Shown: piece by piece, positions 48,113-62,158 of the stretch | How the letters are laid out: the number at the start of each line of letters is the position of its first letter | Numbering within the stretch: the first letter of the stretch is position 1 | From: Candidatus Obscuribacteraceae bacterium | GTDB lineage: Bacteria; Cyanobacteriota; Vampirovibrionia; Obscuribacterales; Obscuribacteraceae | Assembly: GCA_044226015.1 (NCBI GenBank) | Contig: JBGAHS010000007.1 | Location: 224,001 to 288,000 of the forward strand | DNA: 64,000 nt | Reading direction: 5' to 3' | Made by a program: the position numbers and the translations under genes | The notes under the pieces: model-generated | Databases searched by the model: none | What the model saw: only the letters and a program-made list of their open reading frames with translations | Told to the model about the DNA's origin: nothing

Positions 48113-48967
48113 CTATGAAATTGCATTATATTTGCCAAAGGTCTTAATTCCCTGAACCGATGTCTCCATGTCGTTGGCATGTTTTCTGCCTTTCTCATTT
48201 GCGATGCGGAAATCTAGAAAAACTCTAAATTGAAAGGGACGTTCAGGCACTGGAAGTGGCTCGAGCTTTATCAAATCACATCCGTCGCCGAGAAATTGCG
48301 AAAACTCTGTAATTTTGTTCAAATTCTCCTGTCCTTCGAACGCGACAGTAAATTTGAAAGGCGCTGCTACTGTGTCTGATGAAAGCTTCAAATTCTTCTT
48401 TCCCAGTAAGGCAAAACGGGTCTGATTGTGCGCGTAATCTTCAATGTCCGGAGCGATTATTTCCAGTCCATATTCTTCAGCGGCTTGCTTTGCTGCAATG
48501 GCGGCTGCATTTCTCTTCTTCTCGTCCTTGATCATTTTTGCAGATGCACCAGTGTCAAAGTAAATGTGTGGATGCATCCAGCCATGCTCTTTAAAGATTT
48601 TCTTGCATTGATCAAGAGCGACAGGGTGCGAATAAACTTCGATAACGTCCTCCATTCTTGTGCCTGGAAGAGCCATTAACTGATGGTGAATCTGCAATGT
48701 GTATTCAGAGTAGGTATGTAAATTGGTAGCCCAGAGCAATTGATAATTCTGTATTATCGAACCTACAGTTGAATTCTCGAAGGGAATGCAGGACAGAGCA
48801 TTCTCCTCATGCTCTGCAAACTCGAAGGCTTCTTCAAAGCTGCTTTTAGGAACGAACTCTAGCTTGGCTGAGTTCAGAAATGAACTAGCAAATTTCTGAG
48901 CAGCTAGATGGCTAAATGCCCCTGCTGCTCCTTGAAACGCAATTCTGTATGGAGATGATTCAACCAT
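48113..48967 (-). CDS. pheA: Prephenate dehydratase
   Basis: AFQGAAGAFSH, PFENSTVGSI, VYSHPVALDQC, NQTRF; divergent C-terminal ACT-like domain. Confidence 0.92.
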   Translation of the reverse strand: MVESSPYRIAFQGAAGAFSHLAAQKFASSFLNSAKLEFVPKSSFEEAFEFAEHEENALSCIPFENSTVGSIIQNYQLLWATNLHTYSEYTLQIHHQLMALPGTRMEDVIEVYSHPVALDQCKKIFKEHGWMHPHIYFDTGASAKMIKDEKKRNAAAIAAKQAAEEYGLEIIAPDIEDYAHNQTRFALLGKKNLKLSSDTVAAPFKFTVAFEGQENLNKITEFSQFLGDGCDLIKLEPLPVPERPFQFRVFLDFRIANEKGRKHANDMETSVQGIKTFGKYNAIS

Positions 48968-50120
48968 TTTTTCTAATGAATTCCGCAAGTTCATCTACTG
49001 CAAGTTCTTGATCTATCGAGACCTGGCCAGCCTCTTTTTCGGGCAGCACGTATTTGATGTTTTTGCCCGCGCGTTTCTTATCATAGGCGACGGCTTCGGC
49101 TATTTTGTTTAGATCAAGCTCTGCTGGCACTTTGTAAGGAAGCCCGAGTTTACTGAGCGTTTGTTCAACTTCCAGGAAAATCGAATTATCTATCAGTCCT
49201 CGTGCTGCAGCTAGCTTAAATGCAAAAGCTGTTCCTATGGCAACTGCTTCTCCGTGGCTAACCTGATATTGGCTTACTTTCTCAACGCCGTGTCCCAGTG
49301 TATGTCCCAGGTTGAGGCTTCGTCTCAGTCTGGCTTCGAAAGGGTCTTTCAAAACCACCGCGAGTTTCATTCTGATGCAGAGTGCTATAGCTTGCGGTAG
49401 AAAAGGATTGTCTGCACTGATACCGTTTGCAAAATTCTCGGGTATTGTTTTTCTTAGCGGGCGAGGACCTGCCTTGTATTCTGCATTTGCTGCAACTGTA
49501 TCTTCGATGTAGGCATATTTTATGATTTCACCCATGCCGGACTTGAGTTCACGCTCGGGAAGACTTTGCAAAAATTCGGGGTCGACAATTACAGAGCTTG
49601 GAAAATAGAAACTACCAGCAAGATTTTTACCTGATGAGAGGTTTATTGCGGTCTTTCCACCAATGCTGGCGTCAACCTGTGCCAGAAGTGTCGTCGGCAG
49701 CAATACCAACCTTACGCCGCGCAAATAGGTCGATGCACAAAAGCCTGCCAGGTCAGTAAGCGCACCGCCACCTATAGCTAAGATTGTGTCATTTCGAGTG
49801 AATGATGCCTTCTGCATCGATTCCCAGCAAGACTCAAGTTGGGAGAGTGTCTTTGCGGACTCTCCGTCAGGCAGGCTCATCGCTGTTACTGTGAAACCAT
49901 CCTTCTCGAGTGCTTGCTTTTGCTCCTCTGCGTAATCTGGCGGAAGTGATGCTTGACTGAGCAGCAGCACATTCGTTCCGCACCCTAGCTGCTTGAGAAT
50001 CTGAGCACTGCGTTTGCGAAATCCTACTCCAAAATCAACACGTGATGAAATCGGTATCTCCGAGTTGAGCATGATCGTATAAGCTTCGCCTTTGCGACCA
50101 ACACGAGATGAATTCATCAT
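48960..50120 (-). CDS. aroB: 3-dehydroquinate synthase
   Basis: GGGALTDLAGF, PTTLLAQVDASIGGKT, LNLGHTLGH, HGEAVAIG. Confidence 0.96.
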   Translation of the reverse strand: MMNSSRVGRKGEAYTIMLNSEIPISSRVDFGVGFRKRSAQILKQLGCGTNVLLLSQASLPPDYAEEQKQALEKDGFTVTAMSLPDGESAKTLSQLESCWESMQKASFTRNDTILAIGGGALTDLAGFCASTYLRGVRLVLLPTTLLAQVDASIGGKTAINLSSGKNLAGSFYFPSSVIVDPEFLQSLPERELKSGMGEIIKYAYIEDTVAANAEYKAGPRPLRKTIPENFANGISADNPFLPQAIALCIRMKLAVVLKDPFEARLRRSLNLGHTLGHGVEKVSQYQVSHGEAVAIGTAFAFKLAAARGLIDNSIFLEVEQTLSKLGLPYKVPAELDLNKIAEAVAYDKKRAGKNIKYVLPEKEAGQVSIDQELAVDELAEFIRKNG

Positions 50121-51376
50121 TCCATCTCCATCTCAGGGCTTTCACTCGAATTAGCACTGTGCTTGCTGGCTTTGCTTCCCTGTGCTTTGCACCAGATGCG
50201 ATGCCTGCTAAGTGCTGCTTCTATATCTTCGAAATTGTCTGAACCAAATTTTTCAAGAACAGCTCTAGCCAGAACAAAAGCAGTCATAGCTTTTGCAACA
50301 ATAGATGCGGCTGGAACGGCGCAAACATCAGAACGCTCGTAGTGCGCTGTTTCTGCTTCATATTCAGGAAATGAAAGAGAAGGAAGTCCCTTGCGTAGTG
50401 TGGGAATTGGTTTCATATATGCTCTTATACGAAGGCGAGAACCGTTCGTCATGCCCCCTTCGATGCCGCCAGCATGATTTGTTTTGCGCGTGAATGGCAG
50501 CGCTGCATCAGGCTCAGCTTCGAAAAGAGCATCATGAACTTGTGAGCCCGGACGTGAGGCGCTTTCAAAACCGTCTCCGATTTCGACTGCTTTTATGGCT
50601 TGAATGCTCACTAAAGCTTGCGCCAGTTGCGCATCAATTTTTGCATCCCACTGAGTGTAACTGCCCAATCCGACTGGAAGCCCTTCGGCAATTACTTCTA
50701 CTACACCGCCGACACTGTCGCCGTCTTGCCAGGCTTGTTTAATATAGTCCTTCATTTTTTCTGCAGCATCTTTATCTGCGCAGAACATTTCCGAATTCTG
50801 AATCTGGGCTTCCAATTCTGTAAGCGACTGCGTTTCAGTGTCTAATTGACTTCTGACTGGTCCTACTGAAATTACGTGGCATAACAATCTGACGCCGAGA
50901 TGTTCAAGCAATTGCAAGCAGACCGCACCGGCTGCCACTCGCGAAGCCGTTTCTCTCGCGCTTGCTCGCTCAAGAACATCGCGAATGTCCTTTTGCTTGA
51001 ATTTTACTGAACCCGCCAAATCTGCGTGTCCTGGGCGAAAACGCCCAATCTTCTTTTTGCCTTCTTGTTCGAGAACTTCTGCTGAGCTTTCATCAACTGC
51101 ATGGCTAGACATAACGTGTTGCCAGTTGTCGAAATCGCGATTCTTGATCAGTAAACTTATTGGGGCACCAGTGGTGATACCATGACGGACGCCACCGATA
51201 GGCTCGGCCTTGTCAGTTTCAATTTTTTGACGGTTGCCCCTACCATAGCCCTGTTGCCTGAGCTGCAACTCTTTGTTAAGTAGCTCAATATCTAACTTCA
51301 TTCCTGAGGGGAAACCATCAAGCACAGCCACAAGAGCCTGTCCGTGTGATTCCCCAGTGCTTAGAAAGCGCAGCAT
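50117..51376 (-). CDS. aroC: Chorismate synthase
   Basis: GESHG, RPGHAD, ERASARETA, GGIEGGMTNG, ERSD. Confidence 0.97.
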   Translation of the reverse strand: MLRFLSTGESHGQALVAVLDGFPSGMKLDIELLNKELQLRQQGYGRGNRQKIETDKAEPIGGVRHGITTGAPISLLIKNRDFDNWQHVMSSHAVDESSAEVLEQEGKKKIGRFRPGHADLAGSVKFKQKDIRDVLERASARETASRVAAGAVCLQLLEHLGVRLLCHVISVGPVRSQLDTETQSLTELEAQIQNSEMFCADKDAAEKMKDYIKQAWQDGDSVGGVVEVIAEGLPVGLGSYTQWDAKIDAQLAQALVSIQAIKAVEIGDGFESASRPGSQVHDALFEAEPDAALPFTRKTNHAGGIEGGMTNGSRLRIRAYMKPIPTLRKGLPSLSFPEYEAETAHYERSDVCAVPAASIVAKAMTAFVLARAVLEKFGSDNFEDIEAALSRHRIWCKAQGSKASKHSANSSESPEMEME

Positions 51377-51482
51377 TTGTATTATCCAACTACCCTAATG
51401 TGGGGATTAATCTTACAATAAGTCCGCGGTTTGCTTGCGATTTGGGATGCCAAGATTGCGAGCCTGTAATTGTGAGTGAAGA

Positions 51483-52781
51483 ATGAGTGTATTGAAGGGC
51501 GCTTTACAAGTGCCGGGTGACAAGTCCATTTCGCACCGAGCGCTGATTTTTGCGGCGTTGTCAAAGGGGACTAGCAAGGTCTATGGACTTTCACCAGCTT
51601 ACGACTGCCTGAGCAGCGCCGATTGTCTCAAGCAGCTTGGTTTAAAGTTCGAACGACAGACTGCCTCTGGGAACGGCCGGAGGGAAGCCGCGCTGTTGGT
51701 TCACAGCCCTGGAATTGAATCACTTTCGGCTCCAGAAGCGGCTCTGTTTGCTGGAAACTCTGGTACAACAATTCGTCTGATGTCGGGGCTCGTTGCAGGA
51801 AAGAGTTTCAAGACCGAATTCGATGGCGATGAATCGCTCAGAAAGAGACCAATGGCACGTGTGCTTAAACAACTTCAGCTCATGGGGGCTTCGGTAGAGT
51901 ACTTAGATCGCGAAAACTATCCACCCTTTATAGTCCAAGGTGGAGAACTGAAAGGGCGCGAGTTCAAGCTGCAAGAAGCATCGGCTCAGGTTCAAACAGC
52001 ACTTCTTTTGGCCGGATTGCAAGCTGATGGTCGCACTCTTGTTGAATTGCCAAAAGCAGTCAGAGACCACACTGCTCGCATGTTCAAATATATTGGCGTG
52101 CCATTCGAACAGATTGGCGACACGGTAACTGCAGTGAGCCGCCTGCAAGAATCTGTTTCTCCGTACACAATCGATGTGCCTGCCGATATCTCTTCTGCTG
52201 CCTTTTTTATGGTAGCTGCAGCATGTTTGCCTGGCTCAGAACTGCTTCTCACCAATGTTTCTTTGAATCCAGGAAGAGATCTCGTGTACAAAGTTTTGAA
52301 AGAGCTTGGTGCAGATATTTCGATTGAAGATGAGCGTGAACTTTGTGGAGAGCCGATTGCAAATATTCTTGTAAAAGGGAAGAAACTAACTGGCAGCTCA
52401 AGAATTGACGCGGAAACCCTTGCCGCCGGCATTGATGAGATACCAATTCTGGCACTGGCTGCCGCGATGAGCGAAGCGAGTTTGGAAGTCAGCGATGCCA
52501 GTGAATTAAGAGTCAAGGAATCAGATAGGCTTGCAGCAATCGTCACAAATATGAAAGCCGCTGGAGCTGACATAAAAGAATATGATGATGGTTTTGCTAT
52601 TACAGGACGTGGTTTGATCAAAGGCGGGTGCACCTGGCATTCCTATGATGATCACCGAATGGCAATGACAGGACTCATCGCTGGATTGGTCGCGGAACAG
52701 GCTCTGGAAGTTGATAACGAGTCCTGTGTAGCGATTTCGTATCCAGATTTCTTGCAGGATCTTAAACGTCTAACTAAATGA
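51483..52781 (+). CDS. aroA: EPSP synthase
   Basis: PGDKSISHR, GNSGTT, SAQV, ELRVKESDR, DDHRMAM. Confidence 0.97.
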   Translation: MSVLKGALQVPGDKSISHRALIFAALSKGTSKVYGLSPAYDCLSSADCLKQLGLKFERQTASGNGRREAALLVHSPGIESLSAPEAALFAGNSGTTIRLMSGLVAGKSFKTEFDGDESLRKRPMARVLKQLQLMGASVEYLDRENYPPFIVQGGELKGREFKLQEASAQVQTALLLAGLQADGRTLVELPKAVRDHTARMFKYIGVPFEQIGDTVTAVSRLQESVSPYTIDVPADISSAAFFMVAAACLPGSELLLTNVSLNPGRDLVYKVLKELGADISIEDERELCGEPIANILVKGKKLTGSSRIDAETLAAGIDEIPILALAAAMSEASLEVSDASELRVKESDRLAAIVTNMKAAGADIKEYDDGFAITGRGLIKGGCTWHSYDDHRMAMTGLIAGLVAEQALEVDNESCVAISYPDFLQDLKRLTK

Positions 52782-56649: not shown

Positions 56650-57183
56650 ATGACATTTACAAAGAAAAAGAAGTGGCTGTTGGCTGTTTCAATGATTGTA
56701 TCCGTACCCCTACTGGTGGGATTCGCAGCGCCGACCCTTGCTGGAAATGCCACAGCGGCGCCGCTAATCGATAAAGACTTTGAAACTGCTTTGCGGAAAT
56801 TTGTTAGCAAGAGATTTTTCAGCAGAATAAATGCAAGCGATGAACAGCGCGACAAATTATCGAAGATCATGACAGAAACAGCGGATGAAACACGACCTGC
56901 TAGAGAAGAGTTGCGCCAGGGACTTTTGTCTCTGAATAACATGATGTCAGACGAAAAGAGCTCTGACGAAATGATTAAAGCAAAGGTTCAGGAATTAAGA
57001 GCTCTTCGAGAAAAAGTGCAAGACAAGAGAATGTCAGCCCTTTTGGAGGCCAGAAAAATACTCAGCTCTGAACAAAAACAGCAAATACATTCTCGCATCA
57101 ACGATTTGCTCACAGGCAATATCAAAGCTCGGAGACTAGGACTTCTCATGCAAGGCGGAGATATGGTTGCTCTCGATCAATAA
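56650..57183 (+). CDS. Spy/CpxP-family periplasmic protein
   Basis: Signal peptide and LTxxQ-like motifs (ASDEQRDKL; LSSEQKQ). Confidence 0.85.
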   Translation: MTFTKKKKWLLAVSMIVSVPLLVGFAAPTLAGNATAAPLIDKDFETALRKFVSKRFFSRINASDEQRDKLSKIMTETADETRPAREELRQGLLSLNNMMSDEKSSDEMIKAKVQELRALREKVQDKRMSALLEARKILSSEQKQQIHSRINDLLTGNIKARRLGLLMQGGDMVALDQ

Positions 57184-57234
57184 TTTTTGAGTACGACTTC
57201 TGCTTGGAATTTCACTCTTTGTGGGAAATTATTT

Positions 57235-57870
57235 ATGCACGGGCCCGCTAGCATAACAACTTTGCTTAATGGAGAAAAAGGCTTGGCCGCCGCTGATATC
57301 GACAAGCTAACTGATAATGATTTGATTGCTCGAACTCTGTCCGGGCAGAAGAAAGCTTTTGAAGTTATTGTTCGCCGTTATCAGAAACTGGTTTACAACG
57401 TAATTTATCAAATGGTTCAGTCTCATGAAAGTACTGCCGACCTGACGCAAGATACCTTCTACAAGGCTTACAAGAATCTAGGCGGCTTTCGAAACAATGC
57501 AAACCTGAAGCCATGGTTGCTGAAAATTGCATCCAACACGACTTTAAACTTTATTCGAGATAGCAAAAGCAGATATTTTGATTCGCTCGAAGAACTACTG
57601 GAGGAAAGTCCACAGGCAGAGCCCTCTAGTAAAGAATCTCTTGAGGAAGAAGTCGAGCAGCGCTTTTCACAGCTCATGCTCACCGAGGCTCTGAACCATC
57701 TATCACCTCGACATCGGCAGATTTTTGTTCTGCGATATCAACATGACCTTTCCTATCAGGATATAGCGTCTGTGGTGGATGAGAGCGAGAGTGCCATAAA
57801 ATCAATTCTGTTTCGAATCAGAGAAAAGTTGCGGAAGATTTTGGTTGATACACAAAAAGTACAGAGTTAG
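57235..57870 (+). CDS. ECF RNA polymerase sigma factor
   Basis: Region 2 (AFEVIVRRYQ, DLTQDTF, WLLKIASN) and region 4 (LSYQDIA, IKSILFRIREKL). Start uncertain (TTG 57283 possible). Confidence 0.93.
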   Translation: MHGPASITTLLNGEKGLAAADIDKLTDNDLIARTLSGQKKAFEVIVRRYQKLVYNVIYQMVQSHESTADLTQDTFYKAYKNLGGFRNNANLKPWLLKIASNTTLNFIRDSKSRYFDSLEELLEESPQAEPSSKESLEEEVEQRFSQLMLTEALNHLSPRHRQIFVLRYQHDLSYQDIASVVDESESAIKSILFRIREKLRKILVDTQKVQS

Positions 57871-57876
57871 AATTCG

Positions 57877-58317
57877 GTGAGGGTGGAACTAATGGAAGCC
57901 AATGACAAATTTGATTGCTCTTGTTTTTTAGAGCTATTTGAAAAGCAAGAAATCGGACTGACTCTTAACAGTAGCCAGAAAGCAATGTTCGACCAACACA
58001 GTCAGGAATGTAAGTCTTGCCTGGCTATTTTGACTCAGCACTCGAATATTATAGAAATGGCTTCCTCCCTGCCTCAGTTCGATGTGTCGGAAGGGCTAAC
58101 CCAGAAGATTTTGGAAAAGGTTGAGAAACAATCAACTCCTGGAATTGAAACGTCACTATTGCCAATTGGAGTCTTCGCAGCGTTTCTCTATTTTATTCTT
58201 CTTCCTTTTGATTCTTTGCAAAGCGTATTGGGATGGGGCGCCAGTCTGGTTGGTCTTTTCGGTCTACAAATGCTGATGCAGTCGGCTAATTCACAGGAAA
58301 CGATCAGCTTAAAATGA
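57877..58317 (+). CDS. Zinc-binding (ZAS) anti-sigma factor with two TM helices
   Basis: HSQECKSC (HxxxCxxC), directly downstream of the ECF sigma. Confidence 0.85.
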   Translation: MRVELMEANDKFDCSCFLELFEKQEIGLTLNSSQKAMFDQHSQECKSCLAILTQHSNIIEMASSLPQFDVSEGLTQKILEKVEKQSTPGIETSLLPIGVFAAFLYFILLPFDSLQSVLGWGASLVGLFGLQMLMQSANSQETISLK

Positions 58318-59141
58318 GGAAAGACTTGCATCAACTAAGGTTTTTTTTCGTGGCATTTGCACTTCTTAGCTGCCAGTTTTTCTTGACACCTGATATGGTG
58401 CATGCGCAAGGAGCCCCAAGCGAGTTGACGCCAAATACCTCTTCTTCCGATCAGGCTGCTGGGTCAGATCAACAGGGATTATTTTTCGCATTTTTGAGTG
58501 AGGATAAGCAGGTCCTTGATGGACCACTTGTTCAAATCCTGAAAGACAAGCCTGTAATCAGAGACATGATATCTCCACGTGATAAGGTCGCAAGAAAGTA
58601 CAGACCCATGCTTCAGTGGAAACGCTGGGCTGATAAAACGCAAAGGCTAATACCATCCTTATTCTTAATTGGTATAGTGAGCTTTTTTTGCTGGTCTCTT
58701 TTCCCCGTCAAGTTTCTGTCAGCTGTGAGTGAGTCAAAAACTAGTTATTGGCGATGTTTTGGAACTGGCGTACTGATTCTTGCATTCTCTTCTATGTTTG
58801 CTCGCGCTGTATTCATTACTGAGATTGGATGGCCGTTGGGTATTCTAATTACTGGTCTAACTCAGGGGATTTTACTTGCTGGATTGTCGGTTGTTGTGTA
58901 CAACCTTGGGCATTCAACCTTGCTTTTAACTCGACTATCGAAGCTGAGTTTGTTTTCAGAAAATCCCTCCAGAGCAAGGGTTTGTGAGCTTTTACTAGGT
59001 ACCCTGCTGGCAGCCTTGATTCTTAAAATACCTGAACTAGGTCCGCTGCCTCAGTTGGGAACCAGACTGATCTCTTTCTTTGCCCTGCTTGGGGCAGGGG
59101 CTCTTTTTAGAATTTGGAAGAAAGAAACGAGTAAGTCCTGA
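58314..59141 (+). CDS. Multi-pass membrane protein
   Basis: Signal-like N-terminus plus about 5 TM segments; ATGA overlap with the anti-sigma gene. Confidence 0.8.
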   Translation: MRKDLHQLRFFFVAFALLSCQFFLTPDMVHAQGAPSELTPNTSSSDQAAGSDQQGLFFAFLSEDKQVLDGPLVQILKDKPVIRDMISPRDKVARKYRPMLQWKRWADKTQRLIPSLFLIGIVSFFCWSLFPVKFLSAVSESKTSYWRCFGTGVLILAFSSMFARAVFITEIGWPLGILITGLTQGILLAGLSVVVYNLGHSTLLLTRLSKLSLFSENPSRARVCELLLGTLLAALILKIPELGPLPQLGTRLISFFALLGAGALFRIWKKETSKS

Positions 59142-60936: not shown

Positions 60937-61842
60937 TTATCCTCTCGAAACGCAAGAACGTTGAATTCTGTTTGGGTGAATTGAGATTATTTGGGAGTTG
61001 TTCATAGCACTGTATTTTTCGTGCATTGAACGACCCAATGCGGCTGCCAACGGTTTTAGTGATCTGACAAGGGCTTCCATTTCATCCAGCGATAACGCTT
61101 GTCTTGCGTCAGAAACTGACTTGGAAGGTTCTGGATGGCATTCGATTATGAGTCCATCGGCACCGCTGGCGATGGCAGCTTTGGATAAGCCTGCAACCAA
61201 TTCGCTTTTGCCGCATGCATGGCTGGGGTCTACAATAACTGGAAGGTGAGTGATTTGTTTGAGTGCGACGACAGCGCCTAAATCGAGAACATTTCTTGTG
61301 TAATTATCGAAGCTTCTTATACCGCGTTCGCACAAGATTACATCCGGATTGCCGTGGCTTACGATGTATTCTGCCGCGAGAACGAACTCTTCGATGCTGG
61401 CACAAAGTCCGCGTTTCAATAGAACCGGTTTTCCTGCTTGTCCTAAAGCTTTTAGCAAATCGAAGTTTTGCATGTTTCTACTTCCAATTTGCAATATGTC
61501 AGCTGTTTTTACAAGGCTGCTGATTTGATCTTGAGACATGACTTCCGTAATGACAGGAATTCCATAGTCATCTTTGATTTTCTGCAGAATGCTGATGCCT
61601 TCTTCTCCGAGTCCCTGAAAGCTGTAAGGCGAAGTGCGAGGCTTGTACACACCACCACGAATCATCTGCACGGTTTGATGGAGGCGATTTGCCACTGCAT
61701 CCATTTGCTCTTGATTTTCGACGGCACACGGACCCCCGATGATTAGTAATTTATTGGAACCTACGGAAACTTTCTCGGAAATTTTTATTACTGTTGTTTG
61801 CTGCTCTGCAGACTGTTTTCTGACCAATTTTGCATCTAACAT
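60937..61842 (-). CDS. aroF: DAHP synthase, type I-beta, without an N-terminal regulatory domain
   Basis: GGPCAVE, RGGVYKPRTSPYSFQGLG, QIGSRNMQNF, LCERGIRSF, VDPSH, SDARQ; AAGGAG SD. Confidence 0.96.
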   Translation of the reverse strand: MLDAKLVRKQSAEQQTTVIKISEKVSVGSNKLLIIGGPCAVENQEQMDAVANRLHQTVQMIRGGVYKPRTSPYSFQGLGEEGISILQKIKDDYGIPVITEVMSQDQISSLVKTADILQIGSRNMQNFDLLKALGQAGKPVLLKRGLCASIEEFVLAAEYIVSHGNPDVILCERGIRSFDNYTRNVLDLGAVVALKQITHLPVIVDPSHACGKSELVAGLSKAAIASGADGLIIECHPEPSKSVSDARQALSLDEMEALVRSLKPLAAALGRSMHEKYSAMNNSQIISIHPNRIQRSCVSRG

Positions 61843-61923
61843 GACGACTCCTTAGAACAATGTGAATCTTGCGAGGTCCCTGATACTCATGACCCCGCGT
61901 TGCCGATTTGTGCCTGAAATCAA

Positions 61924-61980
61924 CTAAGCTAGGGGAACCTGGCTAAAGAAAAATTCGAAGCTAAAAAACTGTTTTTGCAT
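61924..61980 (-). CDS. Phe-rich leader peptide 2 (MQKQFFSFEFFFSQVPLA)
   Basis: Hand-translated ATG CAA AAA CAG TTT TTT AGC TTC GAA TTT TTC TTT AGC CAG GTT CCC CTA GCT TAG; 6 of 18 residues are Phe; AGGGA SD upstream. Confidence 0.8.
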   Translation of the reverse strand: MQKQFFSFEFFFSQVPLA

Positions 61981-61992
61981 AACATCCCTATT

Positions 61993-62024
61993 AAACGAAA
62001 AGACCGCAGCTAACGACTGCGGTC
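61993..62024 (-). terminator. Attenuator terminator hairpin
   Basis: GACCGCAG-tcgttag-CTGCGGTC followed by TTTTCGTTT on the minus strand. Confidence 0.88.
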
Positions 62025-62048
62025 CACCTGGTGCCTTGAGTTGCTAAC

Positions 62049-62102
62049 TCAGTCCAAGTGAACCTCAATAAAGAAAAAGAAAAAAGGAATTGGGCGTTTC
62101 AT
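62049..62102 (-). CDS. Phe-rich leader peptide 1 (MKRPIPFFFFFIEVHLD), pheL-like
   Basis: Hand-translated ATG AAA CGC CCA ATT CCT TTT TTC TTT TTC TTT ATT GAG GTT CAC TTG GAC TGA; five consecutive Phe codons. Confidence 0.85.
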   Translation of the reverse strand: MKRPIPFFFFFIEVHLD

Positions 62103-62129
62103 TCGTTTTACTGGTGTAGTGATGCAACC

Positions 62130-62158
62130 ATGCTAATTCTAGAATGCCTTATGGTCAA
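62130..62158 (-). promoter_or_regulatory. Sigma70-type promoter TTGACC-N17-TAGCAT for the leader/aroF transcript
   Basis: Hexamers at 62158-62153 and 62135-62130 with a 17-bp spacer; the predicted start lies about 20 nt before leader 1. Confidence 0.65.

Follow-up and report, generated by a model that had tools for sequence, protein, structure and literature searches.

A putative tandem leader-peptide attenuator before aroF in an Obscuribacteraceae bacterium, with a predicted Phe-reading first gate and a probably weakened second gate

We analysed the region upstream of aroF on the minus strand of the window (the whole stretch of 64,000 nucleotides under study) and conclude that this leader probably controls transcription by ribosome-mediated attenuation that reads charged tRNA-Phe, with its first unit as the predicted working gate and its second unit as a weakened relic. 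This conclusion draws on features that were observed directly, namely the sequence, its conservation, frame bias, covariation and gene context; from these we infer leader translation, ribosome stalling, termination and the response to Phe. In the proposed mechanism, when Phe is plentiful, the ribosome would translate leader 1 up to its stop and thereby mask codons 13-16, which form the antiterminator's 5' strand; terminator 1 would then fold, and the transcript would end near 61993. When Phe is short, the ribosome would come to a halt on the first Phe codons and the freed strand would take the emerging 5' arm of the terminator, and the polymerase would continue into aroF, the chorismate mutase gene and perhaps the PII gene.

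Results

Layout of the leader and the aroF operon

A sigma-70-type promoter recognised in the sequence (TTGACC-17-TAGCAT, −35 at 62158-62153 and −10 at 62135-62130) has a predicted start at ~62123, shortly before the putative leader peptide 1, MKRPIPFFFFFIEVHLD (17 aa, 62102-62049), which is not preceded by a Shine-Dalgarno sequence and contains five Phe codons in a row (62084-62070). The last codons of leader 1 (62064-62054) can pair over 11 bp with 62031-62021 to form antiterminator 1 (62064-62021), which encloses an inner hairpin and sequesters the 5' arm of intrinsic terminator 1 (62025-61993, stem 62025-62001 followed by a U-tract), the latter found by both terminator scan and alignment. 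The second unit comprises a Shine-Dalgarno sequence, AGGGA (61989-61985), 4 nt 5' of the ATG of the putative leader peptide 2, MQKQFFSFEFFFSQVPLA (18 aa with six Phe, 61980-61924), a weakened antiterminator 2 (61935-61893), in which 61935-61928 pairs with 61898-61893 (6 bp and a 2-nt bulge) around an inner hairpin at 61924-61902, and hairpin 2 (61898-61871), which by alignment is the homologue of terminator 2 in relatives and has no U-tract. The earlier note had described this minus-strand succession of promoter, leader, terminator, second leader with its own Shine-Dalgarno sequence, hairpins and aroF, and every element was found in place.

The first gene of the operon, aroF (61842-60937, Shine-Dalgarno 61853-61848), is assigned by its sequence to the type I-beta DAHP synthases that have no N-terminal regulatory domain: its product consists of the catalytic barrel only, with neither a ferredoxin-like nor a chorismate mutase domain. 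The long DAHP synthase copy of the same genome (contig C3) does have the PF18152 ferredoxin-like regulatory domain, and no such leader was seen before it. Because the window enzyme has no feedback domain, control appears to have shifted to the RNA. Domain matches identify the next two minus-strand genes as a stand-alone chorismate mutase (PF01817, 60932-60606, 4 nt past aroF) and a PII-family protein (PF00543, 60551-60204), and the spacing suggests that the PII gene is co-transcribed with aroF. Among the 7 loci of the Phe clade, 4 have a PII-family gene 3' of aroF or of aroF-chorismate mutase in the flanks that were fetched. Further pathway genes (pheA, aroB, aroC and aroA) are found inside the window, 9-14 kb from aroF; aroC-aroB-pheA, aroA and an ECF sigma/anti-sigma cluster occupy positions 48113-52781 and 56650-59141, and two other genera share the gene order USP, aroF, sigma cluster, pheA-aroB-aroC.

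Unit 1 has the features of a classical leader-peptide attenuator

Coding selection on leader 1 is well supported by a frame test on aligned sequences of 75 distinct loci (three without an anchor were dropped). In the sensing window, 407 of 600 codons were aromatic in frame vs 112 and 173 in the other two frames; TTN triplets encoded Phe in 194/197 cases in frame vs 106/170 and 120/232 out of frame, and in-frame TAN triplets encoded Tyr in 155/155 cases (76 TAT and 79 TAC). An in-frame start was present in 72 of the 75 loci (vs 16 and 6 in the other frames) and the stop stood exactly four codons past the Val codon, again in 72 of 75. U-rich chance as a source of the Phe codons is ruled out by this test. 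Upstream of leader 1, a promoter match was found in 79 of 84 distinct family loci vs 3.2% of shuffles.

The two alternative helices of unit 1 are both conserved and covarying in a 60-row alignment. The antiterminator 1 helix was paired in 96.7% of 660 cells with two-sided changes at 8 of 11 pairs, a covariation figure that is inflated because 36 of the 60 rows were selected on that helix, through a pattern scan that encodes its pairing. The terminator 1 helix was paired in 98.7% of 540 cells with two-sided changes at 5 of 9 pairs, its 3' arm and U-tract lying outside the selecting pattern, and its stem was followed by at least 6 T in 9 nt in 58 of 60 rows. The fold of the unit-1 region was also unusually stable (z = −3.6; 0 of 200 shuffles equally stable). 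When a ribosome footprint was included in the folding, the probability of the basal terminator 1 pair rose from 0.03 to ~0.85 once the A site was beyond the last Phe codon. At equilibrium, most of terminator 1 formed despite a stalled ribosome (mean pair probability 0.88 vs 0.98) and the full-length states were ~1.3 kcal/mol apart. Because terminator 1 mostly forms at equilibrium in both states, the predicted switch must be kinetic, a mode that is accepted for classical attenuators. No conserved 1:2 pause helix stood out on inspection of the alignment and the folding.

At the genome level, 489 aromatic-rich short ORFs were counted and five of these were followed by a strict terminator, two of the five being the first leaders of both aroF copies (see below; the paralogue's second leader escaped this strict scan). 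RNA evidence came as contigs from the 1 RNA run among 22 listed: a contig spans 61938-62108 with one difference and bridges terminator 1, weak evidence that says nothing of strand, ends or level, and that run contained no near-identical contig over aroF, which is equally uninformative on these three points.

Altogether, unit 1 combines an ORF of end-product codons, a terminator, a mutually exclusive antiterminator, a promoter and a pathway gene; every testable property of a classical leader-peptide attenuator is thus predicted here from alignment and folding, and this assignment is well supported. The frame bias and the exclusive, covarying helices support the proposal of the earlier note that aroF is attenuated by ribosomes on a Phe-codon leader. 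Its suggestion of kinship with E. coli pheL fails: the opening residues of leader 1 are not kept in four same-genus orthologues, and homology with pheL is therefore rejected. An Rfam covariance search, which covers the comparison with Phe leader models that the note had proposed, returned five matches at E values of 10 or less, each well short of the gathering score and none of them from leader families (Phe, Trp, others), T-boxes or riboswitches.

It could be argued that the leaders are conserved for another reason, as a nascent-peptide sensor (through an EVHL motif), as small functional peptides or as protein-bound RNA, and do not read tRNA charge. The C-terminal EVHL of leader 1 is indeed strongly conserved and many paired positions of unit 1 are nearly invariant; however, the EVHL codons are the antiterminator strand itself, many loci of the family have Arg in place of His, with a corresponding change in the pairing strand, and the aromatic residues of the paralogues differ as their neighbouring enzymes do, which makes this explanation extremely improbable in our judgement.

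Unit 2 is probably weakened in this copy

In relatives, unit 2 follows the design of unit 1 with a different sequence. Its terminator was paired in 90.8% of 349 cells, 39 of them changed on both sides, and its antiterminator in 80.9% of 346 cells, with a count of two-sided-change pairs that was equalled by 110 of 500 shuffles. In the window copy, the 9 nt past hairpin 2 include 2 T, compared with a median of 6 across 73 distinct homologues: at least 5 T follow the hairpin in 53 of the 73 and at most 3 in 8, the window copy and seven other loci. A minus-strand terminator scan of the leader listed one terminator, that of unit 1, and not hairpin 2. The unit-2 region fold gave z = −1.95 (7 of 200 shuffles equally stable), and the antiterminator 2 duplex was estimated at −8.5 vs a median of −16.2 kcal/mol, with 8 other loci as weak or weaker. 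Antiterminator 2 still forms in nascent-length folding (−13.0 kcal/mol) and loses at equilibrium, where hairpin 2 has a probability of 0.94-1.0 at all ribosome positions. Four same-genus orthologues all keep an open, Phe-rich second frame despite diverged sequence, and their unit 2 ranges from intact to a weak stem or a weak tail.

The sequence at hairpin 2 recurs in other contigs: contigs from two DNA runs match the whole leader with zero differences (either run being possibly the source of the window DNA), and a contig from a third study spans 61794-61970, also with zero differences. Since these contigs agree, the absent U-tract is no assembly slip, and an assembly error at hairpin 2 is ruled out. 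A search for Rho factor found no match above cut-off in the genome, which is 92% complete, and this absence rules against Rho-dependent termination at unit 2.

Unit 2 of the window therefore presents an end-product-codon ORF with a ribosome-binding site and no U-tract terminator. Because hairpin 2 lacks a U-tract and the search for Rho found none, two working gates in this copy are unsupported, and unit 2 is likely what remains, in weakened form, of a tandem gate that most relatives keep intact. The earlier note had read the leader as two Phe sensors in series: the tandem layout that it described proved to be conserved, but a working second gate finds no support in this copy.

The main rival for unit 2 is a working terminator or pause without U-tract, perhaps assisted by NusA/NusG, so that both units gate and two Phe gates stand in series. 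Assistance of termination or pausing by NusA/NusG is known from other bacteria. Leader 2 retains its Shine-Dalgarno sequence, its ATG, its six Phe codons and the pairing topology, which argues against a mere relic, and this rival can also appeal to the nascent-RNA energy of antiterminator 2, to the second frame kept in 4 of 4 same-genus orthologues and to the seven other T-poor loci. Nevertheless, the two T past the hairpin 2 stem, the missing Rho and the indifference of hairpin 2 to ribosome position at equilibrium all count against it, and we consider two working gates unlikely here. A turn of unit 2 to translational control, where it would open or hide the aroF ribosome-binding site or feed ribosomes to aroF, is suggested by the fact that hairpin 2 ends 17 nt 5' of the aroF Shine-Dalgarno, a site predicted to be weakly paired. 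Yet wherever the ribosome was placed, opening this site cost 5.3-6.8 kcal/mol, and stalling at Phe brought no relief; a translational switch at the site thus gave no signal in folding with a modelled ribosome and we regard it as very unlikely. We retain the weakened relic as the preferred reading of unit 2.

The tandem layout is conserved across the phylum

A protein search for the short aroF gave 103 matches in 75 of 104 family genomes. Leader units were found at 90 of these 103 loci, 12 had none and 1 had too little upstream DNA; two leaders, including a homologue of leader 2, were present at 82 of the 90 (four Trp-type loci were judged by eye, and the profile alignments include 24 of the counted loci). 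In-frame aromatic codons and covarying stems are kept at related aroF loci, where the earlier note had proposed to test for Phe-rich frames and such stems. Outside the class, a unit-1 covariance model matched 20 of 150 further genomes in the phylum, and the best 10 of these 20 matches had unit 2 and a short aroF in 10 of 10; within the class, it matched 0 of 50 genomes of one other family. The tandem leader is also present in oxygenic cyanobacteria, the named carriers including Stenomitos, Oculatella, Leptolyngbya, Lyngbya and Trichodesmium. Among the matches listed, those named records whose leaders are most alike carry the label Obscuribacterales (Melainabacteria). Sequence comparison thus supports conservation of the two-leader tandem layout far outside this genome. 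In a pattern scan, 80 loci with long flanks among the matches listed included 30 with aroF downstream and 2 more with a leader and a terminator but no aroF match, the rest being chance.

Several loci depart from this layout. One (L014, G008:C6) has a tandem of two unit-1 copies where other loci pair unit 1 with unit 2, and 8 other loci are single-unit. A well-supported clade of short aroF (L190, L199, L202 and L204-L211) lacks leader units and has a promoter-like −10 near the start codon, and its mRNAs are perhaps nearly leaderless. In L006, L183, L178 and L167-L182, leader 2 is lengthened to 40-54 codons with a fixed distance from the aromatic run to the stop, and in L008, L013, L017, L089 and kin a chorismate mutase is fused to the C-terminus of the short aroF product.

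Leader codons differ between aroF paralogues

The earlier note had taken the leader for a Phe sensor by type, and this does not extend to the homologues. Of 56 genomes with one leader-bearing copy, 50 combine Phe with Tyr codons, in most cases together with Trp; because most homologues mix these codons, the leader family is not a Phe sensor by type, and the Phe-only leader is a derived state that marks this paralogue clade. The genome under study has a second short aroF (L036, contig C9, 287073-285858, minus strand), whose Tyr/Trp leaders form an intact tandem and which precedes a gene for a chorismate mutase/prephenate dehydrogenase fusion (tyrA). The window aroF leaders hold 11 Phe, 0 Tyr and 0 Trp codons and those of the C9 copy 0 Phe, 8 Tyr and 2 Trp; since the C9 copy has the same layout with Tyr/Trp codons, the two copies appear to divide amino-acid sensing.

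Across the 17 two-copy genomes, 11 had a complementary pair (one Tyr-poor and one Phe-poor copy), 3 opposed a Trp-rich to a Phe/Tyr copy, 2 were partly split and 1 was ambiguous; the pairs fall in about three lineages, and kin are not independent. Four genomes carry one specialised copy alone (loss or incomplete assembly). A prephenate dehydrogenase was found within the ~1.5 kb fetched for 0 of 15 Tyr-poor copies vs 8 of 15 Tyr-rich partners. In a quick tree of 54 rows, a single origin was rejected for the Tyr-poor copies (p-AU 0.002, with groups named after the first tree had been seen) and was not rejected for the Tyr-rich copies (p-AU 0.90); the free search missed a tree that was 29 log-likelihood units better and the branching order is thus provisional. 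Because a single origin of the Tyr-poor copies was rejected, resident copies likely lost their Tyr codons on at least two occasions. These losses possibly followed the arrival of a Tyr-tuned copy, an order that we infer.

For the phylum as a whole, we lean towards a broader reading. Cyanobacteriota would possess an undescribed tandem attenuator before a feedback-less DAHP synthase, and duplicates would have repeatedly split the three aromatics via leader codons (Phe here and Tyr/Trp in the tyrA-linked copy; Phe/Trp vs Tyr, and Trp vs Phe/Tyr, in other genera), thereby rebuilding the three-isozyme logic of E. coli purely in RNA leaders, with a second gate that decays or changes mechanism in the Phe lineage.

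Other leaders in the genome

A Trp-codon leader and a terminator resembling terminator 1 stand before trpE-trpG (L241, contig C7, ~767280-767130, minus strand), and an Arg-codon-rich leader with a U-tract terminator stands before argJ (L252, contig C1, ~405540-405400, minus strand), where the antiterminator is very strong (duplex of −27 kcal/mol). Trp leaders precede trpE at 14 of 17 loci in the family and 0 of 9 outside it, and Arg leaders precede argJ at 8 of 13 family loci (counted by script) and 0 of 6 outside. Codon identity therefore follows the pathway at three operons (aroF, trpE and argJ), as attenuation predicts. The genome-wide scan for further attenuators returned mostly noise and missed the trpE leader. 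On contig C1 (~1231810-1231770, minus strand), another terminator-1-like terminator has a Trp-containing short frame upstream and no long ORF behind it.

Discussion

The leader family, together with the Trp and Arg leaders of the same genome, indicates ribosome-coupled attenuation in this phylum, for which a 2016 paper, in the part available to us, states that there were no reliable data on attenuation in cyanobacteria (PMC4833913). No description of this tandem leader was found in the literature searched, whose coverage left out subscription papers and most supplements, and one supplementary file of PMC8632094 contained no match to the element. With two like attenuators in series that each have a terminator of their own, one can test whether tandem gates sharpen a response, and the cultured cyanobacterial carriers permit direct tests. 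The paralogue pairs indicate that sensor specificity can shift by a few codon swaps after duplication, and the leaders are of relevance for raising aromatic-pathway flux in engineered strains.

Among known systems, an aromatic-codon leader before a DAHP synthase is shared with the aroR-aroF attenuator of C. glutamicum (Neshat et al. 2014, as reported in PMC11802643), where expression goes up under Phe limitation; that system belongs to the Actinobacteria and has one leader (Phe-Tyr-Phe), and the accessible part of PMC11802643 describes neither a tandem nor a paralogue split. The Acholeplasma element uORFC-13-1 is likewise a predicted Phe-codon uORF beside an intrinsic terminator before aroF, but it is a single unit, known in the portion of PMC8632094 at hand from 24 sequences in Acholeplasma only, and the likeness is one of description. 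E. coli pheL-pheA, as far as the available text of PMC3082878 goes, likewise has a run of Phe codons and opposes an antiterminator to a terminator with U-tract; pheA has one leader only, which includes a pause hairpin of its own. In the present leader, by contrast, the antiterminator strand is formed by the last codons of the leader itself and no conserved pause hairpin was identified. Two short ORFs that each act as an attenuator in one leader occur in Salmonella mgtCBR (mgtM and mgtP), a virulence operon that, in the excerpt of PMC3641672 available, responds to two signals (ATP and Pro-tRNA) and has no intrinsic terminators, whereas both units here read aromatic codons and each has its own intrinsic terminator in most relatives.

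The mechanism proposed here is textbook; its novelty lies in two like sensors being placed in tandem, in the phylum where they occur and in the way copies appear to have repeatedly divided Phe, Tyr and Trp sensing among themselves. In E. coli, aromatic sensing is divided between AroF, AroG and AroH by allosteric feedback and repressors. Their transcriptional repression is described in the accessible part of PMC11802643. Compared with these isozymes, the division in the present genome appears to lie in the leader codons, before an enzyme without an N-terminal feedback domain.
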